DNA of 32,000 nucleotides from Xanthomonas campestris pv. campestris str. ATCC 33913 (GCF_000007145.1 NC_003902.1:3266497-3298496), one strand, 5' to 3'; numbered from the stretch's first letter, positions 7,610-24,389 are shown. Made by a program: numbers and translations. The notes: generated by a model not told the origin, from the letters alone.

Positions 7610-7721
7610 GAAAGGGTCCGGTGATGGGGCCGCTCATTGTGACCGCAGCGCGCCCACGCGCCAAGCACAAGCGCACCGGCCACCGCAACGGGCTGGCCTT
7701 TCCGGCGGCTGAACCGCGCGG

Positions 7722-7750
7722 TTGGACTGAGCGGAGCAAAAGAGTACAAT
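7722..7750 (+). promoter_or_regulatory. Candidate sigma70 promoter of the suf operon
   Basis: TTGGAC (7722-7727), a 17-nt spacer, then TACAAT (7745-7750). It lies 33 nt upstream of the regulator ATG. This is pattern matching only. Confidence 0.4.
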
Positions 7751-7782
7751 TTCGGTCCGCTTTAGGGATTCACCGTCCTCGC

Positions 7783-8241
7783 ATGTTGCGCGTCACCAAA
7801 TTGACCGATTACGCCACCGTTGTCTTGACGGTGCTGGCTGCACGGAGCGACCAGGTGCTCAGCGCGAGCGAACTGGCCGAACAGGCCGGCCTGGAAGCGC
7901 CCACCGTCAGCAAGATCCTCAAGCCGTTGTCGCAGGCTGGCCTGGTGGAAGGATTGCGCGGCGTGCACGGCGGCTACCGGCTTGCACGTGCGGCCAGCGC
8001 GATCACCCTGGTGGAGATCGTCGAAGCCATGGAAGGGCCGCTGGCCATCACCGAATGCAGCCAGGACCACAGTCAATGCGGGATCGCCCACCAATGCGGT
8101 GTGCGCTCCAACTGGCGCCTGATCAACGATGTAGTGGGCGATGCCCTGCGTCGCGTGACCCTGGCGCAGATGCTGCACCCCCTCTCCCTCCCTGGCGACA
8201 ACCGTCGGCGTTCCATCGCCGCGCGCGTCGCGACCACCTGA
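7783..8241 (+). CDS. Rrf2/IscR-family transcriptional regulator heading the suf operon
   Basis: I trimmed track ORF 7621..8241 to the ATG at 7783 (MLRVTKLTDYATVVL...). There is a winged-helix N-terminus and a Cys cluster, CSQDHSQCGIAHQCG (C-x6-C-x5-C), like the Fe-S ligands of IscR. It sits immediately upstream of sufB. Confidence 0.87.
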   Translation: MLRVTKLTDYATVVLTVLAARSDQVLSASELAEQAGLEAPTVSKILKPLSQAGLVEGLRGVHGGYRLARAASAITLVEIVEAMEGPLAITECSQDHSQCGIAHQCGVRSNWRLINDVVGDALRRVTLAQMLHPLSLPGDNRRRSIAARVATT

Positions 8242-8256
8242 CCCAGTAGGCAGCCG

Positions 8257-9714: not shown

Positions 9715-9717
9715 CAC

Positions 9718-9852
9718 CTTTCCCCTTCTCCCCTCGGGAGAAGGTGGCGCGCAGCGCCGGATGAGGGTACGGGCGAAGCCAAGTGCACCCAAACGGCACG
9801 ATGCTTCGCACGAACCCTCACCCCAACCCCTCTCCCGGCAGGAGAGGGGCTA
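9718..9852. repeat. REP-like composite palindromic element in the sufB-sufC spacer
   Basis: Hairpin 1 is CCTTCTCCC (9724-9732) paired with GGGAGAAGG (9736-9744). Hairpin 2 is CCCCTCTCC (9827-9835) paired with GGAGAGGGG (9841-9849). Between them lie inner imperfect inverted arms, GAGGGTACGGGCGAAG and CTTCGCACGAACCCTC. The motif resembles the interspersed intergenic repeats I recall from Xanthomonas, Stenotrophomonas and Burkholderia. Confidence 0.6.
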
Positions 9853-9878
9853 CATACGAATTCTGACGGACCATCAGC

Positions 9879-10643
9879 ATGCTCAACATTCAAAATCTCC
9901 ACGCCAGCATCGCCGGCAAAGACATCCTCAAGGGCCTGTCGCTGGACATCCAGCCCGGCCAGGTGCACGCCATCATGGGGCCCAACGGCGCCGGCAAATC
10001 GACCCTGGGCAATGTGCTCGCCGGTCGCGATGGCTACGCAGTCACTGCCGGCAGCGTGCAGTTCGAAGGCGCCGACCTGCTCGACCTGCAGCCGGAAGAA
10101 CGCGCTGCGGCCGGCCTGTTCCTGGCCTTCCAGTACCCGGTGGAAATCCCCGGCGTAAACAACACCTACTTCCTGCGTGCCGCGCTCAATGCGCAGCGCA
10201 AGGCGCGTGGCGAAGAAGAGCTGGATTCCATGCAGTTCCTCAAGCTGGTGCGGCAGAAGCTGGCGGTGCTGCATCTGAAGGACGAGCTGCTGCACCGTGG
10301 CGTCAACGAAGGGTTCTCCGGCGGCGAAAAGAAGCGCAACGAGATCTTCCAGCTGGCCGTACTCGAGCCGAAGTTGGCGATCCTGGACGAAACCGACTCC
10401 GGCCTGGATATCGATGCACTCAAGAGCGTGGCCGACGGCGTCAATGCGCTGCGCTCGACCGAGCGTTCGTTCCTGGTGATCACCCATTACCAGCGCCTGC
10501 TCGACTACATCAAGCCGGACGTGGTGCATGTGCTGTCCGATGGGCGCATCGTGCAGAGTGGCGGCCCGGAGCTGGCGCTGGAGTTGGAAAAACACGGCTA
10601 CCACTTCCTGAAGGACCGTGTGGTGCCGGAGGCCGCCGCCTGA
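9879..10643 (+). CDS. sufC: Fe-S cluster assembly ATPase SufC
   Basis: The 254-aa ORF contains GPNGAGKSTL (Walker A), the ABC signature FSGGEKKRNEI and LAILDETDSGLD (Walker B). Confidence 0.95.
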   Translation: MLNIQNLHASIAGKDILKGLSLDIQPGQVHAIMGPNGAGKSTLGNVLAGRDGYAVTAGSVQFEGADLLDLQPEERAAAGLFLAFQYPVEIPGVNNTYFLRAALNAQRKARGEEELDSMQFLKLVRQKLAVLHLKDELLHRGVNEGFSGGEKKRNEIFQLAVLEPKLAILDETDSGLDIDALKSVADGVNALRSTERSFLVITHYQRLLDYIKPDVVHVLSDGRIVQSGGPELALELEKHGYHFLKDRVVPEAAA

Positions 10644-11905
10644 TGAGTGCCTTGTTGGAATCCCTTGCCAGCGGGTTTAGCGGCAATGCTGCACGGCGCG
10701 CCGAACTCGACGCGGCCTTGCAGACCGGCCTGCCCGGCCCGCGTGCCGAAGCCTGGAAATACACCTCGCTGCGCCAGCTGGAACGCCGCAGCTTCCAGCC
10801 TGCACCGTTGGTGCCGGCGCTGATCGATGCCGCGGTGCTGGATGAGATCCCCACCCCGCGCCTGGTGTTCGTCAATGGCCGTGCGTCGGATGCGCTGAGC
10901 GATCTGTCCGAACTTCCGGCAGGCGTGCAGGTGCAGACGCTGTCGTCCGCACTAGTTGGCGATGAATCGGCGCAGCAGCTGCTTGGCCGCCGCTTCGAGC
11001 GCAGCGATGAAATTTTCGCGCGTCTGAATGCCGCGCTGGCCGATGAAGGCGCGCTGGTGCGCGTGGACGCAGGCGTCAAGGTGGCGCTGCCGCTGCAGCT
11101 GGTGTTCGTTAGCGTGGGCGGCGAGCACGACCTGGCCTGGCACCACCGCCATCTGATCGAATTGCGTGCCGACGCCGCGCTCGGCGTGGTCGAGCACCAC
11201 CTGCACGTAGGCGATGCAGCGCATCTGGACAACAGCGTGATGCATGTCCATCTGGCCCAGGACGCCGTGCTTTCGCACGCACGCGTGCAGGCCGATAGCG
11301 CACGCGCCACCGCGTTCGCGCGGACCGATGCGGTGCTGGCGCGCAATGCGCAGTACCAGCGTGTGGACCTGGAGCTGGGCGCAGGCCTGTCCCGGCACGA
11401 ACTCAATGCGCGGCTGGAAGGCGACAATGCACGGCTCACCGCCAATGGCGTGCTGCTGGGCAATGGCCGCCGGCATGTGGATACCCGCCTGGGCATCGAG
11501 CACATCGCCCGCGACACCGCCTGCGAGCTGGTCTGGCGCGGCGTCGGCGCCGACCGCAGCCGCGTGGTGTTCCACGGCGGCATCCATATCCGCCAGGGCG
11601 CCGATGGCACCGATGCACGTTTGTCGAACAAGAACCTGTTGCTCTCGGACAACGCCGAAATCGACACCCAGCCGGTGCTGGTGATCGACGCGGACGAAGT
11701 GCAGGCCGCGCACGGTGCCACCGTGGGTCAGCTCGACGACAACGCGCTGTTCTACCTGCGCTCGCGCGGGTTGCCGCAGCAGCAGGCGCAGCGCTTGCTC
11801 AGCGCCGCGTTCTGCCATGAGCCGTTGCGCGCACTGCCGTCGCCATTGCGCGATCTGCTGGCCGTGCAGCTGGACCGCGCCCTGAATTCGGCGGGCGTGG
11901 CATGA
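10643..11905 (+). CDS. sufD: Fe-S cluster assembly protein SufD
   Basis: I trimmed track ORF 9761..11905 to the ATG at 10643 (MSALLESLASGF...). This ATG overlaps the sufC stop as TGATG. EAWKYTSL and the C-terminal HGATVGQLDDNALFYLRSRGL are SufD-like. The upstream part of the track ORF overlaps sufC out of frame. Confidence 0.9.
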   Translation: MSALLESLASGFSGNAARRAELDAALQTGLPGPRAEAWKYTSLRQLERRSFQPAPLVPALIDAAVLDEIPTPRLVFVNGRASDALSDLSELPAGVQVQTLSSALVGDESAQQLLGRRFERSDEIFARLNAALADEGALVRVDAGVKVALPLQLVFVSVGGEHDLAWHHRHLIELRADAALGVVEHHLHVGDAAHLDNSVMHVHLAQDAVLSHARVQADSARATAFARTDAVLARNAQYQRVDLELGAGLSRHELNARLEGDNARLTANGVLLGNGRRHVDTRLGIEHIARDTACELVWRGVGADRSRVVFHGGIHIRQGADGTDARLSNKNLLLSDNAEIDTQPVLVIDADEVQAAHGATVGQLDDNALFYLRSRGLPQQQAQRLLSAAFCHEPLRALPSPLRDLLAVQLDRALNSAGVA

Positions 11906-13143
11906 ACGCCTCCGTCGCCGCCACTCCGGCACCGGACTGGGAGCGCGTACGCTCCGATTTCCCGCTGCTGATGCGGCAGGTGCACGGCAAGCCGCTGATC
12001 TATTTCGACAACGCCAACACCGGGCAGAAGCCGCTGCAGGTGATCGCTGCCACCGACGAGTTCTATCGCCGGCAGAACGCCAATGTCAGCCGCGCGGTGC
12101 ATGCACTGGGCACCGAAGCCACCGACGCGTTCGAGGGCGCACGCAGCAAGCTGGCGCGTTTTCTCAACGTGCGCGCCGACGAGCTGGTGCTGTGCAGCGG
12201 CACCACCTTCGCGATCAATCTGGTGGCCTATTCCTGGGCGCTGCCGCGCCTGGGGCCGAGCGATGTGATCCTGGTATCGCGCATGGAGCACCACGCCAAT
12301 ATCGTGCCGTGGCAGTTGGTGGCCCAGCGCACCGGCGCCACCATCCGCGTGGCCGAGATCACGCCTGAGGGCGCGCTGGATCTGGATGCACTGCGTAAGG
12401 CGATGACCCCCGAGGTCAAGCTGCTGGCGATCACCCACGTGTCCAACGTGCTGGGCACAGTGAACCCGGTGCGCGAGATCTGCCGTGAGGCACGCAAGCG
12501 CGGCATCGTCACCGTAGTGGACGGCTCGCAAGCCGCACCGCACCGCCGCGTCGACGTGGCCGGCATCGGCTGCGATTTCTACGCCATCACCGGCCACAAG
12601 ATGTGCGGCCCCACCGGCACCGGAGCATTGTGGGCGCGCCGCGAACATCTGCAGGCCATGCCGCCGTTTTTGGGCGGCGGCGAGATGATCAAGGAAGTGA
12701 GCTTCGAAGGCACCGTATTCAACGACGGCCCGCACAAGTTCGAAGCCGGCACGCCGAATATCGCTGGCTTCATCGGCTTGGGCGCGGCGGTTGACTATCT
12801 GGACGCAGTCGGCCTGGCGCACGTGGAAGCGCGCGAGACCGAGCTGCTCGCGCACTTCACCGAAGAGCTGCAGCGCATCGACGGCCTGCGCATCTTCGGC
12901 ACCACGCCGGACAAGGCGGCGGTGGTGTCGTTCCTGATCGAAGGCGCACATGCGCACGATCTGGCCACCCTGCTCGACCTGGAAGGCGTGGCCGTCCGCT
13001 CCGGCCAGCACTGCGCACACCCGCTGCTGCAGTACTACGGCGTGGCCGCCACCTGCCGCGCCTCGCTGGCGTTCTACAACACGCATGACGAGATCGAGCG
13101 TTTTGTTGCCGCGTTGGTGAAGGTGCGTCAGCTTTTGGGCTGA
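11902..13143 (+). CDS. sufS: Cysteine desulfurase SufS (group II)
   Basis: The 413-aa ORF overlaps the sufD stop as ATGA. It contains ITGHKMCGPTGTGAL (PLP lysine), RSGQHCAHPL (active-site Cys loop) and SLAFYNTHDEI. Confidence 0.95.
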   Translation: MNASVAATPAPDWERVRSDFPLLMRQVHGKPLIYFDNANTGQKPLQVIAATDEFYRRQNANVSRAVHALGTEATDAFEGARSKLARFLNVRADELVLCSGTTFAINLVAYSWALPRLGPSDVILVSRMEHHANIVPWQLVAQRTGATIRVAEITPEGALDLDALRKAMTPEVKLLAITHVSNVLGTVNPVREICREARKRGIVTVVDGSQAAPHRRVDVAGIGCDFYAITGHKMCGPTGTGALWARREHLQAMPPFLGGGEMIKEVSFEGTVFNDGPHKFEAGTPNIAGFIGLGAAVDYLDAVGLAHVEARETELLAHFTEELQRIDGLRIFGTTPDKAAVVSFLIEGAHAHDLATLLDLEGVAVRSGQHCAHPLLQYYGVAATCRASLAFYNTHDEIERFVAALVKVRQLLG

Positions 13144-13150
13144 TTGACTG

Positions 13151-13171
13151 CGGGAATCGGGAATGGAGAAT
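13151..13171. repeat. Inverted copies of the heptamer (CGGGAAT x2 plus degenerate GGAGAAT)
   Basis: The copies start 8 nt after the sufS stop. They are the reverse complement (ATTCCCG) of the downstream array unit. Confidence 0.7.
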
Positions 13172-13244
13172 CGAACAAGCGGGTCTCCCACATGCTGTCG
13201 CTGGTCGACAGAGGGGGAGTAGCTCATTGAGCGGCGCAACGCTT

Positions 13245-13342
13245 TTCCCGATTCCCGATTCCCGATTCCCGACTCCCGATTCCCGATTCCCGATTCCCGA
13301 CTCCCGACTCCCGATTCCCGATTCCCGATTCCCGATTCCCGA
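13245..13342. repeat. Tandem heptanucleotide array (YTCCCGA) x14
   Basis: I counted unit by unit: 11 copies of TTCCCGA and 3 of CTCCCGA (units 5, 9 and 10), contiguous with no spacers. The array ends 13 nt before the GNAT ATG at 13356. Confidence 0.97.
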
Positions 13343-13355
13343 TAAACTGTTCCAC

Positions 13356-13895
13356 ATGCAGACCACCACCTTCCGCACCGCCACCGTCGACGATATCGAT
13401 GCCATCGTCGCGCTCGTCACCTCCGCCTATCGCGGCGACAGCAGCCGCGTCGGCTGGACCACCGAAGCCGACATCCTGGACGGTGCGCGCATCGACCCGG
13501 CGGTGTTGCGGCAGGACATCCTGCGCGACCGCAGCCTGGTGCTGCTGGTGGAACAGGACGGCGCCCTGGTGGCCTGCGCGCATGTTGCCGACGAGGACGG
13601 CGCCGGTTACTTCGGCATGTTCTCGGTCAGCCCCACCCTGCAGGGCGGCGGTATCGGCAAGACAGTGCTCGCCGAAGCCGAACGCATCGCCGCCACCGAG
13701 TGGGCCCTGCCGCTGATGCGCATGACCGTGATCGACGTGCGCAACGAACTCATCGCCTTCTACGAACGCCGCGGGTATCGCCGTACCGGCGTGTCCAAGC
13801 CTTTCCCCTATGGCGACGAGCGCTTCGGCGTGCCGTTGCGCCAGGACCTGCGCTTCGAAGTGCTGGAGAAGCCGCTCGGCGAGGCCGCGTTGTGA
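13356..13895 (+). CDS. GNAT-family N-acetyltransferase
   Basis: I trimmed track ORF 13227..13895 to the ATG at 13356 (MQTTTFRTATVDDIDAIV...). The acetyl-CoA motif LQGGGIGKTVL and the tail AFYERRGYRRTG are present. Upstream of 13356 the track ORF merely translates the heptamer array. Confidence 0.8.
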   Translation: MQTTTFRTATVDDIDAIVALVTSAYRGDSSRVGWTTEADILDGARIDPAVLRQDILRDRSLVLLVEQDGALVACAHVADEDGAGYFGMFSVSPTLQGGGIGKTVLAEAERIAATEWALPLMRMTVIDVRNELIAFYERRGYRRTGVSKPFPYGDERFGVPLRQDLRFEVLEKPLGEAAL

Positions 13896-14221
13896 GCGAC
13901 AACTGGACCTTTGTCTGCGCCAGCGGCGAATTGCTGCCGGGCGAGCTGAAGACCGTGTGGGATGAAGTGACCGATGCGCCGATCGTGGTGTTCAACCTCG
14001 ACGGCGCGCTGTACGCGCTGGAAGACCGCTGCAGCCACGAAGATTACGAACTCTCGCCCGGCACCTTCGACGCGTCCGCCGGCACCATCGAGTGCCTGCT
14101 GCACAGCGCGCGCTTCGATATCCGCGATGGGCGTCCTCTGTGCGCCCCGGCCTATTCCGCAGTGTCCAAGTTCCCGGTGAAGCAGGAACACGGCGGTATC
14201 TGGACCCGCGACGACCGCTGA
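13892..14221 (+). CDS. Rieske [2Fe-2S] ferredoxin-like protein
   Basis: The GTG start at 13892 overlaps the GNAT stop as GTGA (VSDNWTFVCASGELLPG...). The Rieske ligands are CSHEDY...ECLLHSARF, a CxH...CxxH pattern. Confidence 0.85.
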   Translation: MSDNWTFVCASGELLPGELKTVWDEVTDAPIVVFNLDGALYALEDRCSHEDYELSPGTFDASAGTIECLLHSARFDIRDGRPLCAPAYSAVSKFPVKQEHGGIWTRDDR

Positions 14222-14305
14222 GCGCAGTGCCCAGCCGCCACTGGCAGCGCACCGCAAGGCCTCAATCTTTCAGCCGTATGCCATCCATCGGCAAAGATTG
14301 CAAAG

Positions 14306-14324
14306 AAGAATGATTTGCATTTAA
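14306..14324. promoter_or_regulatory. Weak Fur-box-like AT-rich site upstream of the TonB-dependent receptor
   Basis: By my count AAGAATGATTTGCATTTAA matches 11 of 19 positions of GATAATGATAATCATTATC. It is the only AT-rich island in the 343-bp spacer and lies about 240 nt upstream of the start codon. Confidence 0.3.
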
Positions 14325-14564
14325 GATCGCAACCCTTCAGGCCTTCTTAACAACTGGCCTTCCTGCGATCCCATGCGCCTGCCCCTGTCCATGCCGTTTT
14401 CTTCCTGGTGTTCGTCCGCCCTGTGCCGTTCGGCGCAGCGCTGCCGCGTGCACGGACGCCGGGCCTGGCAGCAGGCGGCATCGGGCTGACAGGCGCGCAT
14501 TCCCTTCCCGCATCCGCCGAGCCATCGCCAGGCCGAAGCATCGCTTCCCTTTTCGAGACGTCCC

Positions 14565-16883
14565 ATGACTCCCAGGATTTCCCCGCTCACTTCGGCCGTG
14601 TTGCTGACGCTGTCCGCTCCTGCCTTCGCCCAGCCTGGCGACGCGCCGGCACCTCCGGGCGCAGTGGATCTGGATGCGATCCGGGTGCAGCAGGAGCGTG
14701 CGCAGAAGCCGTCCTCGCCCAAGTACACCGAGGCGCTGCGCGACACCCCGCAGACCATCACCGTGGTCACCAAGCAGACCATGGACCAGCAGAACCTGCT
14801 GTCGCTGCGTGATGTGCTCAGCACCCTGCCCGGCATCACCTTTGGTGCAGGCGAAGGCGGCGGCGGGTATGGCGACAGCATCAACCTGCGCGGCTTTACC
14901 GCCAGCAGCGACATCACCACCGACGGCGTGCGCGACAGCGCGCAGTACAGCCGCAGCGACACCTTCAACCTGGAAGCGGTGGAGCTGATCAACGGCGCCA
15001 ACTCGGCAATGTCCGGCGCAGGCTCGGTCGGTGGCAACATCAACCTGGTGACCAAGACCGCCGGCCAAGGCGACTTCACCAACGTGCTGATCGGCGGCGG
15101 CAGCGACCGCTACGGCCGCCTCACCGTCGACAGCAACTACGACTTCGAAAACGGCACCGCGGTGCGCTTGAACACCATGGGTCATACCCAGGACGTGCCG
15201 GGCCGCGATGAGGAATTCCGTCATCGCTGGGGCTTTGCGCCGTCGGTGGCGTTCGGGCTGGGCTCGGACACGCGCTTCACGCTGAGCTACCTGCACCAGC
15301 ACGACAACAACCTGCCGCAGTACGGCGTGCCGTTCGCGCTCAGCCCGTTCAACGATGGCCCGCTGCCGGGCGTGGACCGCGAAACCTATTACGGCTATCG
15401 CAATGTGTCGCGTCAGGAGATCGACGTGGACATGCTGACCGGCGTGCTGGAAATGGACTTCGACGACAACGTCAAACTGCGCAGCCTGGCGCGTGTGCAG
15501 CGCGTGGACCAGACCACCACGGCCACCGCGCCGGAAGGCACCTGGTGCCTGCCCAACAACACCAACGCCTACACCGGCCGCGCCTGCGTCGGCCAGCCGC
15601 CGTCCACCTGGAACCCGAACAGCGGCCCGCGCGGGCTGGTGCGCGAGACCGAAAACTTCATCGCCCACAGCCAGACCGACCTGACCGCCACCCTGCACAC
15701 CGGCGCCATCGAGCACCGCGTGGTCGCCGGCGTGGCCTTCAGCAAGGAAGATTTCGAACTCGATAGCGGCAGCATCTTCCGCAATGCCGACGGCTCCACC
15801 ACCGGCATCACCTACCCGCTGCAGACCTTCGACAACCCGTACAACATCTGGACCGGCCCGCAGAACTATTTCCGCACCGGACGCAGCAAGGGCAGCCTGA
15901 CCAATCAGGCGGTGTACCTGTTCGACACGCTGCAGTTCAACGAGCAATGGATGCTCAACCTGGGCGGCCGTTACGAACACAACGAAGGCGACAGCACCAC
16001 CTACACCGTCAATGCCACCGGCGGCGTGACCGGCGTGACTCCGGGGTTCCCGGCAGGCAGCGAAGAGGATCTGTTCTCCTACCGCGCCGGCCTGGTATTC
16101 AAGCCGGTCGACAACGCCAGCCTGTATCTGTCCTACGCCAACAGCAAGACCCCGTCCAAGGCGTCGGTCAATGGCTCGTGCACGCCGATCGCCACTGCCA
16201 CCGTCGGCGCCAACTGCAATGTGGAGCCGGAAAGCGCGGTCAATATCGAACTCGGCGGTAAGTGGGACGTGTTGAACGAGCGTCTGGCACTGACGGCGGC
16301 GGTGTTCCGCAACGAGCGCGAGAACTACAAGGTCAACAGCGGCGACCCGCTGATTCCCGAGCAGGTGCTCGACGGCAAGGCGCGCGTGGATGGCATTGCG
16401 CTGGGCGCGGCCGGCTACCTGACCGAGCGTTGGTCGGTCTTCGCCAACTACACTTTCCTGGACAGCGAAGTGCTGCAGAGCGTTTCCAACCGCACTGCCA
16501 GCCTCACCGGCGACCCGATTGCCGGACGCGAACTGGTGCAGACCCCGCGCAACGCCGGCAATCTCTGGACCACGTATCAGCTCAACGAGTGGACGTTCGG
16601 GTACGGCGTCAATTACCAGGGCAGCTTCTATCCGAACAACACCTCGACCGCGGTCTACCGCAAGACCGACGCGTACTGGGTGCACCGCGCGATGGTCGGC
16701 CTGCGCGTCAACGACTGGCTCAGCCTGCAGTTGAACGTCAACAACCTGTTCGACAAGGAGTACTACACCAGCATCCGCAACAACCTCACCGTCAACGCCG
16801 CGGGCACCGTCACCGCCGGCAGCGGCTGGGCGTTGCCGGGTGATGGCCGCTCGGCGGTATTGAACGCGACCTTCAGCTTCTGA
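14565..16883 (+). CDS. TonB-dependent siderophore receptor (Fiu/PiuA/CirA-like catecholate type)
   Basis: The ORF is 772 aa. The signal peptide is MTPRISPLTSAVLLTLSAPAFAQ. Plug motifs are DTPQTITVVT and LRGF, and the protein ends in the beta-barrel terminus ...LNATFSF. A piuC/ybiX homologue follows directly, as in fiu-ybiX and piuA-piuC. Confidence 0.92.
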   Translation: MTPRISPLTSAVLLTLSAPAFAQPGDAPAPPGAVDLDAIRVQQERAQKPSSPKYTEALRDTPQTITVVTKQTMDQQNLLSLRDVLSTLPGITFGAGEGGGGYGDSINLRGFTASSDITTDGVRDSAQYSRSDTFNLEAVELINGANSAMSGAGSVGGNINLVTKTAGQGDFTNVLIGGGSDRYGRLTVDSNYDFENGTAVRLNTMGHTQDVPGRDEEFRHRWGFAPSVAFGLGSDTRFTLSYLHQHDNNLPQYGVPFALSPFNDGPLPGVDRETYYGYRNVSRQEIDVDMLTGVLEMDFDDNVKLRSLARVQRVDQTTTATAPEGTWCLPNNTNAYTGRACVGQPPSTWNPNSGPRGLVRETENFIAHSQTDLTATLHTGAIEHRVVAGVAFSKEDFELDSGSIFRNADGSTTGITYPLQTFDNPYNIWTGPQNYFRTGRSKGSLTNQAVYLFDTLQFNEQWMLNLGGRYEHNEGDSTTYTVNATGGVTGVTPGFPAGSEEDLFSYRAGLVFKPVDNASLYLSYANSKTPSKASVNGSCTPIATATVGANCNVEPESAVNIELGGKWDVLNERLALTAAVFRNERENYKVNSGDPLIPEQVLDGKARVDGIALGAAGYLTERWSVFANYTFLDSEVLQSVSNRTASLTGDPIAGRELVQTPRNAGNLWTTYQLNEWTFGYGVNYQGSFYPNNTSTAVYRKTDAYWVHRAMVGLRVNDWLSLQLNVNNLFDKEYYTSIRNNLTVNAAGTVTAGSGWALPGDGRSAVLNATFSF

Positions 16884-16893
16884 TTCATCAACG

Positions 16894-16918
16894 CGCCGTC
16901 CGCAGTCCGCGGACGGCG
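16894..16918 (+). other. Intercistronic GC hairpin between the receptor gene and piuC
   Basis: CGCCGTCCGC (16894-16903) pairs with GCGGACGGCG (16909-16918) around a 5-nt loop. There is no T-run. A GGAGA ribosome-binding site for piuC follows immediately. Confidence 0.55.
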
Positions 16919-16931
16919 TGGAGACCACTGC

Positions 16932-17618
16932 ATGTTGTTGCCCATTCCCGACGTCCTGACGCCCGCCCAGCTGAGCCAGCTGAGTGAGCGTTTGGACGCG
17001 GCCGACTGGGCCGATGGCCGCATCACCGCCGGCCATCAGTCCGCGCAGGCCAAGGACAACGCGCAGTTGCCCGAAGACAGCCCGATCGCGCGCGAGGCCA
17101 GTGCGCTGGTGCTCGACGCGCTGTCGCGCAGCAGTACGTTTTTTTCCGCCGCGTTGCCGCGCCGGATCTATCCACCGCTGTTCAATCGCTACAGCGGCGG
17201 GCAGTCGTTCGGCTACCACGTCGACAATGCGGTGCGTTACGACCGCAGCCGTGGCGGCGCCGATCCGGTGCGCACCGACGTCTCCGCCACGCTGTTCCTC
17301 AGCGACCCGGACAGCTACGACGGCGGCGAGCTGGTGATCGAAGACACCTACGGCACGCAGTCGGTGAAATTGCCGGCCGGCCATCTGGTGATCTACCCCG
17401 GCACCAGCCTGCATAAAGTGATGCCGGTGACGCGTGGCACGCGTGTCGCCTCGTTCTTCTGGATACAAAGCATGCTGCGCAACGATGCACAGCGCCGCCT
17501 GCTGTTCGAATTGGACGTGTCGATCCGTCGTTTGACCCAGGACACGCCCGGGCATCCGTCGCTGATCCAGCTCACCGGCGTGTATCACAACCTGCTGCGG
17601 CAATGGGCCGATGTCTGA
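16932..17618 (+). CDS. piuC: PKHD-type Fe(II)/2-oxoglutarate-dependent hydroxylase PiuC/YbiX
   Basis: The 228-aa ORF starts [14 protein letters not shown] and contains FGYHVDNA (HxD), [10 protein letters not shown], and a distal His in GTSLHKV. The sequence is very similar to my recollection of YbiX/PiuC. Confidence 0.88.
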
Positions 17619-18369
17619 GCCGGTGCTGGACACCGCGCAGGTGATCGCCGCACTGCGCACGCAGCCCGCGCAGGCGGTGGCGTTGCTACGCAAGGCGGCC
17701 GATCGCCAGGATGTGGCCGCACAGCTTCTGCTCGCACAACTCTACGCAGAAGGCCGCGGCGTCGCGGCCGATCCGATCCAGGCGATGCTGTGGTACGAAG
17801 TGGCCGCCAATGCAGGGCACCCGGAAGCGATGAACCAGCTCGGGCGCTGCCACGAACTGGGCTTCGGCACGCCCTGCAATCTGGAGCTGGCGGCGCTGTG
17901 GTTTCGCCGCGCCGCCGCGCATGGCCTGGACTGGGGCATGTACAACCTGGCCCACCTGTACGCCTCCGGCCGCGGCGTCGCGCAGGACCACACCCAGGCG
18001 TTGGCGCTGTATCGCCGCGCTGCCGAACACGGGCACGCCAAGTCGATGAATTTCGTGGCGCGCTATCTGGAGCAAGGCCTGGCCGGCGCTGCAGATCCGC
18101 ACGCCGCCCGCGCCTGGTACCGCCGCTCCGCCGAGGCCGGCGATTTCCGCGGGCAAGCCGGTTTTGCGACGGTGCTGGCCGACGACGGCGACATCGATCA
18201 GGCCGAAGTCTGGATGCGCCGCGCCATCGCTGGCGGGCATGCCGGGTTCCTGCGCCAACTCACCCCGCTGCTGGCCGCCGCTCCACAACCCCGCCTGCGC
18301 GCATTGCTGAGCGAAGTGCGTGCGCGGCAGTCGCCTGCGCCGCCCGCCACCTCCACGGCGGCGGCCTGA
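17611..18369 (+). CDS. Sel1-repeat (TPR-like) protein with no signal peptide
   Basis: The ORF is 252 aa. Its ATG overlaps the piuC stop by 8 nt (ATGTCTGA). It has at least five Sel1-type repeats, for example [34 protein letters not shown] and [30 protein letters not shown]. Confidence 0.82.
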
Positions 18370-18374
18370 CCCAC

Positions 18375-19019
18375 ATGGCGCCCGCCTCCTCCACCGATCA
18401 GCTCGGCGCCGCGCAACAACGGCGCGGCTTCTGGCTGCGCATGCTGCATCAATGGCACTGGATCAGTTCGGCGGTGTGCCTGATCGGCATGCTGCTGTTT
18501 ACCGTCACCGGCCTCACCTTGAATCACGCCGCGCGCATCGAAGCCACTCCTTCGACCGAGCACCGCACGCTCACGCTGCCTACTGCGCTGCTGCAGACCC
18601 TGGGCACGCGCCAGGAAGGCAATGCGCCACTGCCGCCGCGCGTCGCACAGTGGCTGGGCCGCGAACTGGACATCAGCGTCGGCACGCGCGAGGGCGAATG
18701 GTCGCCGGAGGAAATCTATCTCGCACTGCCGCGCCCCGGTGGCGATGCCTGGCTGAGCCTGGACCGCAGCACCGGCGCGGTGGAATACGAGCGCACCGGG
18801 CGCGGCGCGATCGCCTACCTCAACGATCTGCACAAGGGCCGCAACGCCGGGCCAGCCTGGGGCTGGTTTATCGACGTGTTCGCCATCGCCTGCCTGGTGT
18901 TTTGCATCACCGGCCTGTTTTTACTGCACCTGCACGCGCGCCAGCGGCGCATGACCTGGCCGCTGGTTGGCCTAGGCTTGCTGATTCCGCTGTTGCTTGC
19001 CCTGTTGCTGATCCACTGA
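18375..19019 (+). CDS. PepSY-associated TM-helix (PepSY_TM, PiuB/FoxB-like) inner-membrane protein
   Basis: I trimmed track ORF 17790..19019 to the ATG at 18375 (MAPASSTDQLG...). There are three hydrophobic helices. The two His-containing signature motifs, FWLRMLHQWHW and AYLNDLHKGRNAG, are present. Confidence 0.82.
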   Translation: MAPASSTDQLGAAQQRRGFWLRMLHQWHWISSAVCLIGMLLFTVTGLTLNHAARIEATPSTEHRTLTLPTALLQTLGTRQEGNAPLPPRVAQWLGRELDISVGTREGEWSPEEIYLALPRPGGDAWLSLDRSTGAVEYERTGRGAIAYLNDLHKGRNAGPAWGWFIDVFAIACLVFCITGLFLLHLHARQRRMTWPLVGLGLLIPLLLALLLIH

Positions 19020-19042
19020 CCCTATCGCCTCCGGAGACGACC

Positions 19043-19558
19043 ATGCGCGCCACCTTGACCATCGCACTGAGCGGCCTGCTCGCCATGCCGGCGTATGCGG
19101 CCACGCTCGATATCAACGTCGAGATCCCCAAGCTCAATGTCGCCGAATACCACCGCCCGTACGTGGCGATCTGGGTCGAAGGCGCCGACCAGAAGGCCGC
19201 TGCCAACCTGGCAGTCTGGTACCAGTCCAAGGACACCGCCGAAGGCCATGGCACCAAATGGCTGCCAGACTTGCGCCAGTGGTGGCGCAAGAGCGGGCGC
19301 ACCCTGGAGGTGCCGGTCGACGGCGTTACCGGCCCGACCCGACCCGCCGGCGCGCACGCGTTGTCGTTCACCGATACCAAGGGTGCGCTGAAGTCGCTGC
19401 CGGCCGGCCAATACACGCTGGTGGTGGAGGCCGCGCGTGAAGTGGGCGGCCGCGAGCTGGTCAAAGTGCCTTTCACCTGGCCGGCCACCGCTGCACAGAC
19501 GGCCAAGGCCAGCGGCAGCAGCGAGCTGGGCACGGTCAGCCTGGTCGGCAAGCCCTGA
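19043..19558 (+). CDS. DUF2271 periplasmic protein, a candidate flavinylation substrate
   Basis: I trimmed track ORF 18320..19558 to the ATG at 19043, which follows a GGAGA ribosome-binding site. The signal peptide is [30 protein letters not shown] and [13 protein letters not shown] are typical of DUF2271 as I recall it. A flavinylation-like motif, DGVTGPT, lies at 19319-19339. Confidence 0.8.
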
Positions 19559-19709
19559 TCGTGCGCTGCGCGCGGTCGCTCGCACGCGCCGAGTGCGATG
19601 CGAGTCCCCCGCACGCACGGCGTTATTCGATCTTCCACGCATCCACGCGGCGCAGCTGTGCGCTGACCAGATACGCGACCACCGCCCTCATCTTCTGCAA
19701 GGAGTTGCC

Positions 19710-20513
19710 ATGAAACGTCCTCTCGTCCTGATCGCCCTGCTCGCCGCACTGCCGGTCACCGCCCTCGCGCACAAGGCCTGGTTGCTGCCTTCGCAGACCG
19801 TCCTCGCTGGCGAAGCGCCGTGGATCACCGTCGATGCCGCGGTGTCCAACGACCTGTTCTATTTCAACCACGTGCCGCTGCGGCTGGACAACCTGACCAT
19901 CACCGCGCCCGATGGCAGCGCGCTCAAGCCGGAGAATCCGGCCACCGGCAAGTACCGCAGCGTGTTCGACCTGCAGCTCACCCAGCCCGGCACCTACAAG
20001 CTCAGCATCACCAATGCCGGCCTGTTCGCCAGCTGGAAGGAAGACGGCAAGCCCAAGCGCTGGCGCGGTAACGAAACCAGCTTCGCCACCGAAGTGCCGA
20101 AGAACGCGCAGGAACTGCAGGTCTCCCAGTCGCTCAATCGCGTGGAAACCTTCGTGACCCGCGGCGCGCCCACCACCACCGTGTTCAAGCCCAGCGGCAA
20201 GGGCATCGAGCTGATTCCGGTCACTCACCCCAACGACCTGGTCGCTGGTGAAGCCGCGCAGTTCACTCTGCAACTGGATGGCAAACCGGCGGCCGGCCTG
20301 GAGATCGAAATCGTGCGTGGCGGTACCCGCTACCGCGATGCGCAGAACGAGATCAAGCTCAAGACCGACGCCAAGGGCGGCTTCAGCGTGACCTGGCCGG
20401 AGCCGGGCATGTACTGGCTGGAAACCACCGCCGAAGACACCAAAACTTCGCTGCCGCAGGCCAAGCAGCGCCGTCTCGGCTATGTCGCCACGTTGGAAGT
20501 GTTGCCGCAGTAA
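19710..20513 (+). CDS. DUF4198 periplasmic protein
   Basis: I trimmed track ORF 19437..20513 to the ATG at 19710, which follows an AAGGAG ribosome-binding site. The signal peptide is [20 protein letters not shown], followed by HKAWLLPS. The sequence is rich in beta-strand-like segments and resembles the DUF4198 family. Confidence 0.8.
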
Positions 20514-20525
20514 TCGCCGCATGCA

Positions 20526-20561
20526 CGTCACTGCATTGATCCGATAACCAATGCAGTGACG
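20526..20561 (+). other. Perfect 13-bp stem-loop downstream of the DUF4198 gene
   Basis: CGTCACTGCATTG (20526-20538) pairs with CAATGCAGTGACG (20549-20561) around a 10-nt loop. No T-run follows. It lies in the 218-bp gap before apbE. Confidence 0.6.
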
Positions 20562-20731
20562 CTGTTGAGACGGCACATGCTATCGGCGTGTACCGTCTGC
20601 CACGTGCGCAGCGCACGCTGCACCAACCGACGCATCCTCTGCTGCTTCAAAGACACGCCGCGTGATGCAAACGGCACGTTCGCGCGTCACCATGGCTGCC
20701 TCAAGGCAGCGCCTGCTCGACCGGTCAACAC

Positions 20732-21706
20732 ATGCACCCAGTTTCTTCCGCAGATGACACCGTTGCCACGCTGGGCGGCCGCAGCATGGGCACCACCTGG
20801 AGCGTGAAAATGGTGGCGCCGCGCGGCCGCGATCTGCATCCGTTGCATGCGGTGATCCAGGGTGCGCTCGATCGCGTGGTCGCGCAGATGAGCACCTGGG
20901 ACGCAGACTCGGACATCACCCGCTTCAACCGTGCCGCCGCCGGCACCTGGCAGCGGTTGCCGGACGCGTTCCACCGTGTGCTGACCACGGCGCTGGAGAT
21001 TGCGCGTGCCAGCGATGGCGCGTTCGATCCAACCGTCGGCCCGATGGTAGACCTGTGGGGCTTCGGTGCCGCCGGTGGGCCGCGCAAGGTGCCCAGTGCC
21101 GAGCAGATCGCCCTGGCCCGGCAGCGCTGTGGCTGGCAGCGCCTGCAACTGGACGCAGACAGAGCACTGCAACCCGGCGCGCTTGCATTGGATTTGTCGG
21201 GCATCGCCAAGGGCTTCGGTGTGGACTGCGTGCAGCGCGCGTTGGCGCAGGCGGGCATCGCCAGCGCGTTGATCGATGTCGGCGGCGAGCTGTTTGGATA
21301 CGGCCGCAAACCCGATGGCAGCGCATGGCGTGTCCTGGTGGAATCAGCGCCCGACGAAGACGCAGGCACCGCACTGCCCGCGCGCGTGCTGGCACTGGAT
21401 GGACTGGCCGTGGCCACCTCCGGCGACCGCTGGCACCGCTTCGAGGCCGGCGGCGTACGTTACGCGCATACCTTCGACCCACGCCTGGGCGCGCCGGTTG
21501 CGCAGGCAGCGGCCGCGGTCACCGTGCTGGCGCACGATGCGATGCATGCCGATGCCTGGGCAACCGCAATGACCGTGCTCGGTGTTGACGCGGGCCTGGC
21601 TTATGCGACGAACGCAGGGCTTGCGGTGCGCTTTTTGCAGCGCCGCGGCGCGGATTTGCAGGAATCCATGAGCCCGGCGTTTGAAACGCATCTGGCTGCC
21701 GCATGA
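20732..21706 (+). CDS. apbE: ApbE-family FAD:protein FMN transferase
   Basis: The 324-aa ORF contains SMGTTWSV, FDPTVGPMVDLWGFG, DLSGIAKGFGVD and ATSGDRWHRFEAGGVRYAHTFDPRLGAP. An in-frame TGA at 20663-20665 limits any upstream extension. Confidence 0.87.
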   Translation: MHPVSSADDTVATLGGRSMGTTWSVKMVAPRGRDLHPLHAVIQGALDRVVAQMSTWDADSDITRFNRAAAGTWQRLPDAFHRVLTTALEIARASDGAFDPTVGPMVDLWGFGAAGGPRKVPSAEQIALARQRCGWQRLQLDADRALQPGALALDLSGIAKGFGVDCVQRALAQAGIASALIDVGGELFGYGRKPDGSAWRVLVESAPDEDAGTALPARVLALDGLAVATSGDRWHRFEAGGVRYAHTFDPRLGAPVAQAAAAVTVLAHDAMHADAWATAMTVLGVDAGLAYATNAGLAVRFLQRRGADLQESMSPAFETHLAAA

Positions 21707-23307
21707 GCCTCGCCTCCCCACGCGTGTGGCTTGGCAACGGCGTCATCCTGCTGGCCTTGGCGGTACTGGCCGCCTGGTTGGGCAGCCTGCATGCGGGCCC
21801 GTGGTGGAGCGCCCCCGCCCCACACCGTTGGCAATGGGCGGGCCTCAGCCTGGCGGCTTACGCCATCGTCTGTTTCGGCCTGTGGCTGCGCGGGCGTCCA
21901 CGCGTTGCGGCTGCGCGCGGCGATGACAGCAACCTGCTGATCGCCTGGGCGAGCCAGACCGGGTTCGCGCGTGAATTGGCCGAACGCAGCGCCACTGCCC
22001 TGCAGCAGGCCGGCGTCGGTGCGCATGCATTGCCGCTGGACGCGTTGGATGCCAATCAACTATCGCGCGTGCCGCGCCTGCTCTGCATCGTCAGCACCAC
22101 CGGCGAAGGCGATGCACCCGATCACGTACAAGCAGCCGAGCGCACCTGGCTCGCCGGCAGCGATACCGATCTGGCCGCGCTGCGTTACGCGGTCGTGGCG
22201 CTGGGCGACCGCCGTTACGCGCAGTTCTGCGCATTTGGGCGGCGCCTGGATGCACGCTTGCAGGCGCAAGGTGCAACCCCCTTGTTCGCACGCATCGAGG
22301 TCGACAACGCCGAGCCGCAGTCCCTGCAGCAGTGGCAGCAAAGGCTGGCTGAACTGGCACCGGCACTGGCGACGCAAGCGGATTGGAGTGTGCCCAGTTA
22401 TGCCGACTGGCAGCTGCAGCAGCGCGTGCATATCAATCCGGGCAGCGCGGGCGCCGCGGTGTATCGCTTGCGCCTGATCCCGTGCGGCGGTCATTTGCCG
22501 CAGTGGAGCGCGGGCGACATTGCCGAAATCCGCCCGCAGCATTCGCCACAAGTGGTGGAGACCTGGCTGCAGCGGCATCTGCTGGACGGCACCCAACAGG
22601 TGCAGGGGCGTTCGTTGCACGCCTGGCTCAGCGGCGCGACCCTGCCTGACGACAGCCCCGACATCACTTCGCTGGATGCATGGGTACACACGCTGGCAGC
22701 GCTGCCACACCGCGACTACTCGCTGGCCTCGCTCCCCGACGAAGGCCATGCCGAACTGCTGATCCGTCAACACCTGCATGCCGATGGCACGCCCGGCCTG
22801 GGAAGCGGCTGGCTTTGCCGGGCGGCTCCAATCGGCGCGCGCATCGCGCTACGCGTGCGGACCAATCCCGGCTTCCACCCGCCCGCCGCCGCGCAACCGA
22901 TGCTGCTGATCGGCAATGGCACCGGGATCGCCGGCTTGCGTGCACACCTGCGCGCGCGCATCGCCGCCGGTGCGCGCCGCAACTGGCTGTTGTTCGGCGA
23001 ACGCAACGCAGCCTACGACACGCTCTATGGCGATGAACTCGAACACTGGCAGCGCGACGGCTGGATCGAACGACTGGACCGCGTCTATTCCCGCGACAGT
23101 AGCCAGCCGCATCGCTACGTTCAACACGCCTTGGCCGCCGCGGCGGCGGACGTGCGCGCATGGGTGGCGCAAGGCGCCTGCGTGTACGTCTGCGGCAGCC
23201 TGCGCGGCATGGCCCCGGAGGTCGATGCCACCCTCGACAGCATTCTGGGAACCGACCTCAAACACGCACTACTCAGCAGCGGGCGGTATCGTCGCGACGT
23301 GTACTGA
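21703..23307 (+). CDS. Membrane-anchored diflavin reductase (flavodoxin plus FAD/NADPH FNR domains; CysJ/CPR-like; equivalent to the PiuB C-terminal region)
   Basis: The ORF is 534 aa and overlaps the apbE stop as ATGA. It has two N-terminal hydrophobic helices. The FMN motifs are LLIAWASQTGFARELA, CIVSTTGEGDAPD and VVALGDRRYAQFCAFG. RDYSLAS is the FAD RxYS motif and LLIGNGTGIAGLRAHL is the NADPH motif. The C-terminal part reads VYVCGSLRGMAPEV...GRYRRDVY. Confidence 0.87.
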   Translation: MSLASPRVWLGNGVILLALAVLAAWLGSLHAGPWWSAPAPHRWQWAGLSLAAYAIVCFGLWLRGRPRVAAARGDDSNLLIAWASQTGFARELAERSATALQQAGVGAHALPLDALDANQLSRVPRLLCIVSTTGEGDAPDHVQAAERTWLAGSDTDLAALRYAVVALGDRRYAQFCAFGRRLDARLQAQGATPLFARIEVDNAEPQSLQQWQQRLAELAPALATQADWSVPSYADWQLQQRVHINPGSAGAAVYRLRLIPCGGHLPQWSAGDIAEIRPQHSPQVVETWLQRHLLDGTQQVQGRSLHAWLSGATLPDDSPDITSLDAWVHTLAALPHRDYSLASLPDEGHAELLIRQHLHADGTPGLGSGWLCRAAPIGARIALRVRTNPGFHPPAAAQPMLLIGNGTGIAGLRAHLRARIAAGARRNWLLFGERNAAYDTLYGDELEHWQRDGWIERLDRVYSRDSSQPHRYVQHALAAAAADVRAWVAQGACVYVCGSLRGMAPEVDATLDSILGTDLKHALLSSGRYRRDVY

Positions 23308-23419
23308 TGGTCGTTATTGCAAGCGAAACTCCACTGCTGTGAACGGATATGTTGCGCTTCACTTGTTAGCCGCAGTGCAGCGGCTTGCATGGATCTGCAC
23401 ATGCAACGGCCCCGTGAAG

Positions 23420-23443
23420 CTGCACCTGCACCTGCACCTGCAT
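23420..23443. repeat. Hexanucleotide microsatellite (CTGCAC)x3 plus CTGCAT
   Basis: I read it directly in the convergent intergenic region between the reductase gene and hutD. Confidence 0.85.
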
Positions 23444-23459
23444 CTGAAAGTCCACCACC

Positions 23460-24056
23460 TCAGCCAGCCGGACTCACCCGGATCGCCAGCAGTTCGCCGC
23501 CGCCATCCAGCACGAAGCGGCTGCGCGTTCGCGCCGACAACCACGCGGTGTCACCGGCCAGCAACGGCGGCAACCCGCTATCGCGGCCAAAACTTGCCTG
23601 CCCGGCAAGCAGATGGATCGCCCAGGCACTGCCGGGGTCGGCAAAGAACAGCATCGTGCCCACCAGCGGGCGGTGCAGCAGCTCGGTCTGCAACACAGCG
23701 CGCCGCCACATCAGGTTGAAGTCCTGCGTCGGCCCGTCGCCCAGCACCGCGGTGACCGCCTCCTCGCCCGCGAACCGCAGCCGCTGATACGGCGGCAGCA
23801 AGCTGTGCTGCCGCCCGTCGCCAAACTGCAGCTGCATGCCATTGCCACGCAGCAACACCAGCTCGCGGTCGATCCCGGGAAACGCGGAGAACGCCGCGTC
23901 CTGCTCGATCTCGGCAATCGACAGGCGCAGCGCCCAGGCATCGTCGGGCTCTCCCAGCCGCAGGATCTCGCGGGTCCAGCCCAACTGGTTGCGCCACCGC
24001 TCACGGCGGTACTCGGTGGCCGGGATCACCCGGCTGCTCAGGTCTGTCAGCTGCAT
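23460..24056 (-). CDS. hutD: HutD/Ves-family protein
   Basis: I trimmed track ORF 23460..24074 (TTG start) to the ATG at 24056 (MQLTDLSSRVIPATEYRRERWRNQLGWTREI...). The overall pattern matches the HutD (DUF886) cupin-like family as I recall it. Confidence 0.72.
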   Translation of the reverse strand: MQLTDLSSRVIPATEYRRERWRNQLGWTREILRLGEPDDAWALRLSIAEIEQDAAFSAFPGIDRELVLLRGNGMQLQFGDGRQHSLLPPYQRLRFAGEEAVTAVLGDGPTQDFNLMWRRAVLQTELLHRPLVGTMLFFADPGSAWAIHLLAGQASFGRDSGLPPLLAGDTAWLSARTRSRFVLDGGGELLAIRVSPAG

Positions 24057-24389
24057 CGGCGCATTGTGCCGCAAGCGTGCATGTGTGCCTGCATGAGTGT
24101 GTTTGCCTGCCTACTTGCCCATGTCCAGACGAGCGCACGCGCGCAATTGCCATCGCGTACGTCCATACCGAAAGTGCCATCATCAAGATGCCGAGACATC
24201 AGCATCAGTCTCCGGCGTACTGATGCGTACCGCAGAACACATGGCAGTGCGGAACACGTATGCAAGGTCGCGCGCGTACACCACGCAGCCCACCGTCAAG
24301 CCAGAGATCAGCGTCACGCCCATACCGGATCCGGCACTACAGCCACCTAACCCGGGCTGCGCAGCTGGCTGCTATGAAGCACCCAAACG

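Follow-up and report, generated by a model that had tools for sequence, protein, structure and literature searches.

The question raised by a 32,000-nucleotide (nt) stretch of Xanthomonas campestris pv. campestris str. ATCC 33913 (GCF_000007145.1, NC_003902.1:3266497-3298496), referred to below as the window, is whether eight adjacent genes found in it form a single pathway for iron acquisition. The genes encode a TonB-dependent receptor, a PiuC/YbiX-type hydroxylase, a Sel1-repeat protein, a PepSY-like membrane protein, a DUF2271 and a DUF4198 protein, an ApbE flavin mononucleotide (FMN) transferase and a diflavin reductase. An original prediction, made from the sequence alone, had proposed that together they provide an entire path for electrons from NADPH, via flavin and haem, to Fe(III) or a ferric siderophore in the periplasm, and knew of no experimental characterisation of the arrangement. 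The question is of wider interest, as siderophore-conjugated antibiotics such as cefiderocol enter through PiuA/Fiu-type receptors, and periplasmic reductive iron release is an under-studied step in iron uptake. The analysis described here indicates that the set is likely to be one Fur-repressed operon, starting with the receptor gene XCC2772, in which two known iron-acquisition modules are joined and which would carry an electron route to periplasmic iron.

Gene content and promoter region

Translation of the window confirmed that the eight predicted genes are all present between 14565 and 23307, on one strand (+) and tightly packed. The receptor gene, XCC2772, is found at 14565-16883 and is followed by the genes for PiuC (16932-17618), the Sel1-repeat protein (17611-18369), the PepSY-like protein of 214 amino acids (aa; 18375-19019), the DUF2271 protein (19043-19558), the DUF4198 protein (19710-20513), ApbE (20732-21706) and the diflavin reductase (21703-23307). 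The distances between the first five genes range from -8 to +48 nt, and the two overlaps described in the original prediction, 8 nt between piuC and the Sel1 gene and an ATGA shared by apbE and the reductase gene, were recovered from the coordinates and from the sequence, respectively. In Xanthomonas, 5 nt separate the Sel1 gene from the gene for the PepSY-like protein, and there is no internal Fur box there. The gap between the DUF4198 gene and apbE is 218 nt in the window and approximately 80 nt in other Xanthomonas.

Upstream of XCC2772, a Fur box (AAGAAGAATGATTTGCATT, 14303-14321, + strand) agrees with the X. campestris Fur consensus in 15 of its 19 positions. This was the top match in the window, the runner-up scoring 12, and 0.02 sites scoring at least 14 would be expected in shuffled sequence. 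The box is overlapped by a promoter-like region (TTGCAA, 17 nt, TAAGAT; 14298-14327, + strand), the hexamers of which were read by eye from a conserved block and which is the most AT-rich 30-mer of the window; the start coordinate given in the original prediction, 14296, coincides with it. The X. campestris consensus was needed to detect the box, as a scan using the Escherichia coli Fur consensus gave no match within 3 mismatches. A simple sigma-70 scan of 14000-24200 gave no promoter match, and an Rfam search of the window gave no match either, so that no FMN or other riboswitch was found.

Both the sequence of the box and its spacing of 244 bp from the start codon match exactly those published for XCC2772 (PMC1790865, Table 1), which is one of seven X. 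campestris receptor genes for which reporter fusions showed induction on iron starvation and Fur-mediated repression (Blanvillain et al. 2007, PMC1790865). With a box overlapping the promoter and a published dependence of XCC2772 expression on iron and on Fur, the locus belongs to the Fur regulon. The iron-dependent regulation that the original prediction had put forward as a check is thus documented for the first gene of the set, and expression data for the seven genes downstream of XCC2772 were not found in the literature.

The 80-nt block that holds the Fur box shows no differences among four Xanthomonas species, while elsewhere the leader diverges. Because the 5-nt gap ahead of the gene for the PepSY-like protein leaves no space for a second promoter, the whole Xanthomonas set would be placed on a single Fur-controlled promoter and, judging from the sequence, all eight genes most likely depend on it. 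Fur-box-like sites also precede the first gene in most of the related clusters described below, whichever gene leads, including three from Caulobacter (L061, L074 and L075), and the Fur site of Caulobacter crescentus CC3059 has been verified experimentally (PMC3751524).

The leader itself contains a possible upstream open reading frame of 38 aa (14373-14489, + strand). The assignment is tentative and is based on the start codon, the frame, the length (37-38 aa) and the C-terminal ASG and stop, all of which are kept in the four Xanthomonas despite strong divergence. A 'hypothetical protein' is likewise listed next to the receptor in the Fur regulon table for Stenotrophomonas maltophilia. Approximately 50 nt located 3' of the Fur box (14327-14375) are 100% identical in the four Xanthomonas, with the sequence beyond diverging freely, and this conserved segment includes a small inverted repeat, AGGCC-N12-GGCCT.

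Arrangement of the genes in related loci

Related loci were recovered by a genome scan with an alignment of the PepSY-like protein. The best 80 of at least 594 loci, those most similar to the query, were retained, and the eight window proteins were located in them by tblastn. Gene arrangements were counted in the 61 complete loci, those flanked by 9 kb or more on each side, and, as the sample favours relatives of the query, the fractions should not be taken as global frequencies.

Co-conservation and conservation of gene order, which had been suggested as a check in the original prediction, proved to be strong. A five-gene core, made up of the genes for the PepSY-like protein, DUF2271, DUF4198, ApbE and the reductase, is colinear in 60 of the 61 complete loci, which range over Lysobacterales, Burkholderiales, Caulobacter and Sphingomonadales. 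Conservation of the order of all eight genes held only in part: the core is widespread, whereas the full contiguous order including the Sel1 gene is limited to Xanthomonas (L001-L003) and Pseudoxanthomonas kaohsiungensis (L027). A Sel1 gene was detected in 10 of the 61 loci and in other taxa is invariably next to the PiuC gene, in either order; in Stenotrophomonas the two are swapped.

The genes for PiuC and a Fiu/PiuA-type receptor were found within 10 kb of the core in 40 of the 61 complete loci, in four layouts that are spread over three proteobacterial classes. In the most common (22 of the 40), they are directly upstream of the core on the same strand, and in a further 12 they are upstream with an insert of approximately 3 kb. 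Five loci, four of them betaproteobacterial (Rhodoferax, two Herminiimonas and a metagenome-assembled genome (MAG) of Oxalobacteraceae) and one from an alphaproteobacterial MAG, have them just downstream of the reductase gene and convergent with it, and in a single locus, from Dokdonella, they are downstream on the same strand. All six of the PiuC-linked receptors that were tested are of the Fiu type, and some receptors, those in L025, L051 and L072, exceed the Fiu equivalog cut-off. The link to a catecholate-type receptor, for which the original prediction knew of no experimental characterisation, recurs in several independent gene arrangements. That the two parts have been joined repeatedly, and in differing layouts, supports a functional link between them, and the set is most readily understood as a pair of modules, receptor-PiuC(-Sel1) and the five-gene core, that have repeatedly been brought together.

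Several loci depart from these arrangements in detail. In L012 (S. maltophilia), a second receptor of the CirA/CfrA/IreA type, which is catecholate-class, is located at 7333-9813, between receptor-Sel1-PiuC and the PepSY core. A gap of approximately 3 kb like that in L012 is also seen in further Stenotrophomonas loci and some relatives (L007, L010, L015, L020-L024, L028, L042 and L055); the content of the insert was examined in L012. The two Herminiimonas loci both have additional genes convergent with the core. In one (L072, 14606-20638) there are two successive pairs of genes for PiuC and a Fiu-type receptor downstream of the core, and in the other (L071, 14528-19356) one PiuC and receptor pair precedes a Sel1 gene, after which comes a second PiuC gene. 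Two loci are exceptions to the five-gene core. In a Lysobacter MAG (L069, 2244-5864), the reductase gene directly follows the DUF4198 gene and ApbE was not detected, while in Sphingoaurantiacus (L062, 10001-16168) no reductase gene was detected after apbE and a receptor gene on the opposite strand is found there instead.

The encoded proteins and a proposed electron route

The proteins encoded by XCC2772 and the two following genes fall into the families that were predicted originally. The receptor has Plug and barrel domains, scores above the cut-off of TIGR01783 and has Fiu as its best NCBIfam match (E 1.7e-121). The score against the Fiu equivalog NF007349, 406.6 bits, is below the cut-off of 686, which makes the protein Fiu-like or PiuA-like and not a Fiu orthologue. 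The nearest solved structures are PiuA 5FOK (E 2e-114), PiuD 5NEC, Acinetobacter baumannii PiuA 5FP1 and Fiu 6BPM (E 1e-79), and FhuA was matched far more weakly in the same comparison with the PDB (approximately 1e-23). With Fiu and PiuA as its closest relatives, the receptor was placed with the Fiu/PiuA-type catecholate receptors. The hydroxylase, of the PKHD-type Fe(II)/2-oxoglutarate class, scores 366 bits against NF003975 (cut-off 180), contains both PF13640 and PF18331 and matches the PiuC structure 9QN1 (E 1e-92), which identifies it as PiuC/YbiX; no hydrophobic N-terminus was found and it is predicted to be cytoplasmic. The third protein has four Sel1 repeats. As previously proposed it has no signal peptide, and a hydrophobic N-terminus was found neither in the window copy nor in any of 15 homologues in the related loci. 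This suggests that it works with PiuC in the cytoplasm and is not a scaffold in the periplasm.

The PepSY-like protein is matched over its full length by PF16357, the PepSY_TM_like_2 family (E 1.2e-83), and also by PF03929 (41.5 bits, cut-off 28.8). It is 98% identical to an X. campestris protein and has three hydrophobic transmembrane (TM) segments. The PepSY_TM signature of FoxB/PiuB-type reductases consists of a His located N-terminal to a TM helix and (S/T)G near the C-terminal end of that helix (PMC10866019), and this combination was found for both TM1 (H25/H28 and T45-G46) and TM2 (H153 and T179-G180). All of the 21 diverse homologues compared, with identities as low as 28%, keep His28 and His153, and the description of a three-TM PepSY_TM protein with both conserved His motifs was therefore upheld. 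In an AlphaFold 2 (AF2) model with a predicted local distance difference test (pLDDT) score of 81.6, a long helix is followed by a small alpha/beta domain (residues 60-154) and two more helices. We regard the protein as a putative haem-carrying transmembrane electron conduit on the basis of its sequence motifs, and it would probably need to oligomerise to form bis-His haem sites.

Signal peptides were confirmed for both the DUF2271 and the DUF4198 protein. The former (PF10029, E 5e-53) has a Sec-type signal peptide and the motif D93-G94-V-T96-G97-P-T99, of which D93, G94, G97 and T99 are conserved in at least 90% of 81 sequences. Within it, T96-G97-P98-T99 corresponds to the ApbE acceptor motif [S/T]GA[S/T], with Pro replacing Ala, and the protein is the predicted FMN acceptor. 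ApbE flavinylation of another DUF2271 member with the same acceptor motif has been validated (Méheust et al. 2021, PMC8238504).

The DUF4198 protein (PF10670, 214 bits, E 3e-63) has a predicted cleavage site between ALA and HKAW. H21 and H54 are conserved in at least 90% of sequences and, as cleavage would occur directly before H21, the mature protein would start with a conserved His, so that both the domain and the N-terminal His of the family are present. In the Ideonella protein IsDUF4198, the N-terminal His is part of a divalent-metal site that binds Ni (PMC12537917), while Zcp from Neisseria gonorrhoeae binds Zn via a three-histidine pocket (PMC12663993). The window protein resembles these two in its Pfam family, its secretion, the conserved N-terminal His after cleavage and the association with a TonB-dependent receptor. 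It differs in that Zcp and IsDUF4198 have Zn or Ni as their ligands and are controlled by Zur or a NikR-type regulator, whereas its own gene would be under Fur control in a reductase cluster, and from this context we infer that the ligand is Fe(II). The family profile matches 9MHI and 9MHK in the PDB, and the set 9MHI-9MHO comprises the only solved structures matched. These entries were deposited as 'phosphoribosylglycinamide formyltransferase' (274 aa) and may be a misannotated DUF4198 protein, possibly Zcp, under a carried-over name.

The last gene encodes a protein with Flavodoxin_1 and NAD_binding_1 domains and two N-terminal hydrophobic segments, in line with the membrane-anchored flavodoxin plus FNR reductase envisaged originally. 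Motifs of the CysJ/cytochrome P450 reductase (CPR) family, namely those of the FMN loop (S84-Q-T-G87 and S131-T-x-G-E-G-D137), the flavin adenine dinucleotide (FAD) site (R337-x-Y-S340), the NADPH site (G404-N-G-T-G408) and the C-terminal aromatic residue (R-D-V-Y534), are conserved in at least 90% of 69 sequences, and CysJ and CPR were the best matches in the PDB. The protein is not CysJ itself, as it scored 208 against the CysJ equivalog cut-off of 668.

A route can be proposed from these assignments, in which we infer each electron-transfer step, the iron substrate and the functions of PiuC and Sel1. Iron limitation would release the promoter from Fur, as is established for XCC2772, and the Fiu/PiuA-type receptor would, from its family, bring a ferric (mono)catecholate-type complex to the periplasm, with PiuC and its Sel1 partner presumably acting in the cytoplasm. 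The membrane-anchored CysJ-like reductase is predicted from its motifs to oxidise cytoplasmic NADPH and would pass electrons to the His-ligated haem or haems of the three-helix PepSY-like protein, which is probably oligomeric. From there they could reach an FMN bound covalently to Thr99 of DUF2271, and DUF2271 would reduce Fe(III), either free or chelated. The released divalent iron might be captured by DUF4198, at a site including the N-terminal His, and with the Fe(II) product removed like this, low-potential ferric catecholates would also be easier to reduce. Import of Fe(II) would then be by a transporter encoded elsewhere, for example Feo.

Alternatives and comparison with known systems

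A number of observations weigh against this route. The two-PepSY-domain, four-TM architecture of FoxB/PiuB-type reductases is not present in the PepSY-like protein, which has one alpha/beta domain and three helices. No phmmer or profile match to it was found in the PDB, including FoxB 7ABW, and Foldseek with the AF2 monomer gave no match to solved structures at E <= 0.001. With one PepSY-like domain, three TM segments and no match to FoxB, it is the motifs that support haem binding. The characterised DUF4198 proteins bind Ni or Zn, and not iron. The 32-kb window has no gene for an Fe(II) permease or other inner-membrane Fe(II) transporter. The core was found by itself in 19 of the 61 complete loci and, considered together with the separation of the two modules in Caulobacter, this indicates that it is not strictly dependent on the receptor. 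A signal peptide is also missing in 67 of 72 ApbE orthologues, while the DUF2271 protein is Sec-exported. The original claim of an entire path stands insofar as every component of the route is encoded, and falls short at ApbE, which has no signal peptide, and at the Fe(II) transporter.

The loci with the core by itself would fit an explanation in which the modules are separate units that lie side by side and have nothing but Fur control in common, with the receptor, PiuC and Sel1 handling a catecholate-type substrate and the core acting as a general periplasmic ferric reductase that feeds Feo and works with any receptor. In Caulobacter the modules are unlinked, yet each contributes to fitness: transposon insertions in the core lower fitness in ethylenediaminetetraacetic acid (EDTA), and the same is true of cciT, which encodes a Fiu/PiuA-type receptor, and of the PiuC homologue cciO (10.1101/2024.10.16.618771). 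The partner receptor also varies, being either 31-34% or 56-71% identical to the window receptor, and some loci have a CirA-like receptor in addition. This explanation nevertheless appears unlikely, as the juxtaposition recurs in the four layouts and three classes, the linked receptors are always Fiu/PiuA-type (or CirA-like) and together with PiuC, and in Xanthomonas the modules are 5 nt apart with no Fur box between them. The siderophore type of the associated receptors, together with promoters that carry Fur boxes and not Zur or NikR sites, also speaks against a system that handles a different metal or a periplasmic oxidant, through Cu(II) reduction, Ni or Zn binding by DUF4198 or a role in oxidative stress, with iron regulation being secondary. 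The metals bound by the characterised DUF4198 proteins (PMC12537917, PMC12663993) would be in keeping with such a role, and a Caulobacter TonB-dependent receptor and oxygenase are reportedly linked to copper resistance (PMC12004943). However, the Caulobacter core is Fur-regulated and its mutants are less fit when EDTA lowers cellular iron, and we consider a primary role other than in iron acquisition to be very improbable. A Fur-repressed operon that joins the two modules for the acquisition of iron remains the preferred reading.

Of all the features, the location of ApbE alone could point in an unexpected direction. The assignment to the ApbE family, also part of the original prediction, is secure (PF02424, 276 bits, E 5e-82, residues 19-299; ATSGD, DPR and D274/T278 conserved), and the score against the E. 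coli ApbE equivalog, 221, does not reach the cut-off of 498. No signal peptide or lipobox was found at the N-terminus (MHPVSSADDTVATLGGRSMGTTW), where the top hydrophobic 12-mer scored 0.48 (Kyte-Doolittle) and where the reading frame is closed a short way upstream, with no space for a signal peptide. ApbE in its canonical form is a lipoprotein of the periplasm, and cytosolic ApbEs are known only for cytosolic targets (PMC12052999). The five orthologues with a clear signal peptide or lipobox are in L057, L058, L059, L060 and L070, and the signal-less ApbEs of the alpha- and betaproteobacteria have M-x-R-[VI]-L-[VI]-P as a common N-terminus. In the pipeline of Méheust et al. a signal peptide was demanded in one target gene only (PMC8238504), so that a conflict in ApbE topology would go unflagged.

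Three possible causes were considered and rejected. In many taxa the stop-to-stop frames are not long enough for an upstream extension or frameshift that conceals an ApbE signal peptide, DUF2271 lacks the conserved twin-arginine motif that Tat export of a pre-flavinylated form would call for, and the reductase was dismissed as the ApbE substrate on motif grounds, [ST]G[AS][ST] being present in 6 of 68 sequences at scattered positions. DUF2271 is the sole conserved candidate substrate in the cluster. Possible options are that pre-DUF2271 is flavinylated before it is exported, that ApbE is exported unconventionally or that a different periplasmic ApbE serves DUF2271, the cluster enzyme having some other function. 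An ApbE that works in the cytoplasm, on the coupled reductase or in FAD/FMN handling, and never on DUF2271, which would obtain its flavin from another periplasmic ApbE or have none, would agree with the missing signal peptides, with the coupling of apbE to the reductase gene via the ATGA overlap and with the known cytosolic ApbEs. The scattered occurrence of the motif in the reductase, the acceptor Thr kept in at least 90% of DUF2271 sequences, the existence of ApbE-DUF2271 fusions (PMC8238504, PMC7190382) and the secreted ApbE in five orthologous clusters all argue against it, and we view it as quite unlikely. A broader proposal is that ApbE of this clade is cytoplasmic with FMN added to DUF2271 before or during Sec export, or is exported by an unrecognised route, and that receptor-PiuC(-Sel1) and the flavin-based reductase make up one dedicated pathway for catecholate iron; this combination is put forward tentatively, and is itself doubtful. 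If true, the cytoplasmic scheme would allow periplasmic flavoproteins to be made without FAD export, and a signal-less ApbE with a Sec-exported target poses a concrete, testable question about the site of flavinylation.

Other features of the region were also noted. Directly 3' of the DUF4198 stop codon there are two strong RNA hairpins (approximately 20523-20565 and 20568-20598, + strand). The first contains a perfect 12-bp repeat, GTCACTGCATTG-N10-CAATGCAGTGAC, at 20527-20560, and the folding energy of the region 20523-20598 is -41.9 kcal/mol (z = -5.1). None of the 80 related loci contains the hairpin sequence, which could be an insertion resembling a repetitive extragenic palindrome (REP) or an intra-operon attenuator or stabiliser, and might reduce expression of apbE and the reductase gene relative to the genes upstream. 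Directly upstream of the receptor operon, and on the same strand (+, 8242-14221), is the suf operon for Fe-S assembly (sufB, sufC, sufD and sufS), with genes for a GNAT acetyltransferase and then a Rieske-domain protein following sufS, which places two iron-related units side by side. The downstream neighbours are a HutD gene on the opposite strand and an M20 peptidase gene.

The operon is a good example of a known system, and not a new type. The claim to novelty in the original prediction was not sustained, as both the five-gene core and the same electron-transfer model have been published (PMC8238504), which leaves the mechanism plausible but not original. Méheust et al. (2021) described 3220 clusters of a PepSY-like flavinylated system, often with ApbE, of which 2833 included DUF2271, 1500 DUF4198 and 231 a TonB receptor, with 1077 PepSY-like genes carrying an NAD-binding domain, and they suggested that electrons pass across the membrane from NAD(P)H to iron in the periplasm, serving iron reduction and assimilation (PMC8238504). 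The window core has the features by which those clusters were recognised, namely a PF16357 protein with DUF2271 encoded by the next gene and ApbE three genes away (within the limit of five), signal peptides on DUF2271 and DUF4198, and an NAD-binding domain (PF00175) in the reductase. The recurrent pairing of the PepSY-like system with a Fiu/PiuA-type receptor and PiuC was not found in print, and the literature search found no biochemistry on the Xanthomonas operon covering haem, DUF2271 flavin or reductase activity. With receptor, PiuC, Sel1 and a predicted flavin/haem route in one Fur operon, it offers a compact genetic system in which to test the PepSY-like model in a plant pathogen.

Among the closest known systems is the C. 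crescentus operon CC3059-CC3063 (CCNA_03155-03159), which consists of the same five genes in the same order with an upstream Fur box, is Fur-repressed (PMC3751524) and has the same proposed route; the Caulobacter core loci L061, L074 and L075 were recovered in the survey. It differs in that the window core has no promoter of its own and lies behind the genes for the receptor, PiuC and Sel1, whereas Caulobacter cciT and cciO are at a separate locus. Similar gene combinations have been recorded in S. maltophilia, where pepSY and genes for a periplasmic protein, a TonB-dependent receptor, a sel1 protein and piuC are part of the predicted Fur regulon (PMC6240677), and in Alteromonas, where DUF2271/DUF4198 pairs adjoin iron-induced receptors (PMC7190382).

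FoxB and FpvG are PepSY-type periplasmic ferric reductases (reviewed in PMC10866019). Compared with FoxB, FpvG and FhuB (PepSY_TM, PF03929), the window protein likewise has a His just before a PepSY_TM helix, (S/T)G near its end and a periplasmic PepSY-like domain, but it is approximately half the size and has an extra third helix and a soluble partner predicted to be flavinylated. In Pseudomonas aeruginosa, piuA is followed by piuB, which encodes a PepSY-type protein (PMC10866019 for piuB), and piuC by piuE (PA4516), described in the literature as a hypothetical protein. The receptor is thus accompanied by a PepSY-type membrane protein there also, though PiuB (COG3182) has two PepSY domains and four TM segments (PMC10866019) where the window protein has one PepSY-like domain and three.

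The P. aeruginosa piu and E. coli fiu-ybiX systems are further related to the window set by its PiuA/PiuD/Fiu-like receptor and by the match to PiuC (1e-92). E. coli fiu-ybiX is named in the literature as a receptor-hydroxylase pair, and it is not known to have a reductive module. Relative to P. aeruginosa piu, the reductase in the window is encoded by a separate gene, and DUF2271, DUF4198 and ApbE have been added.

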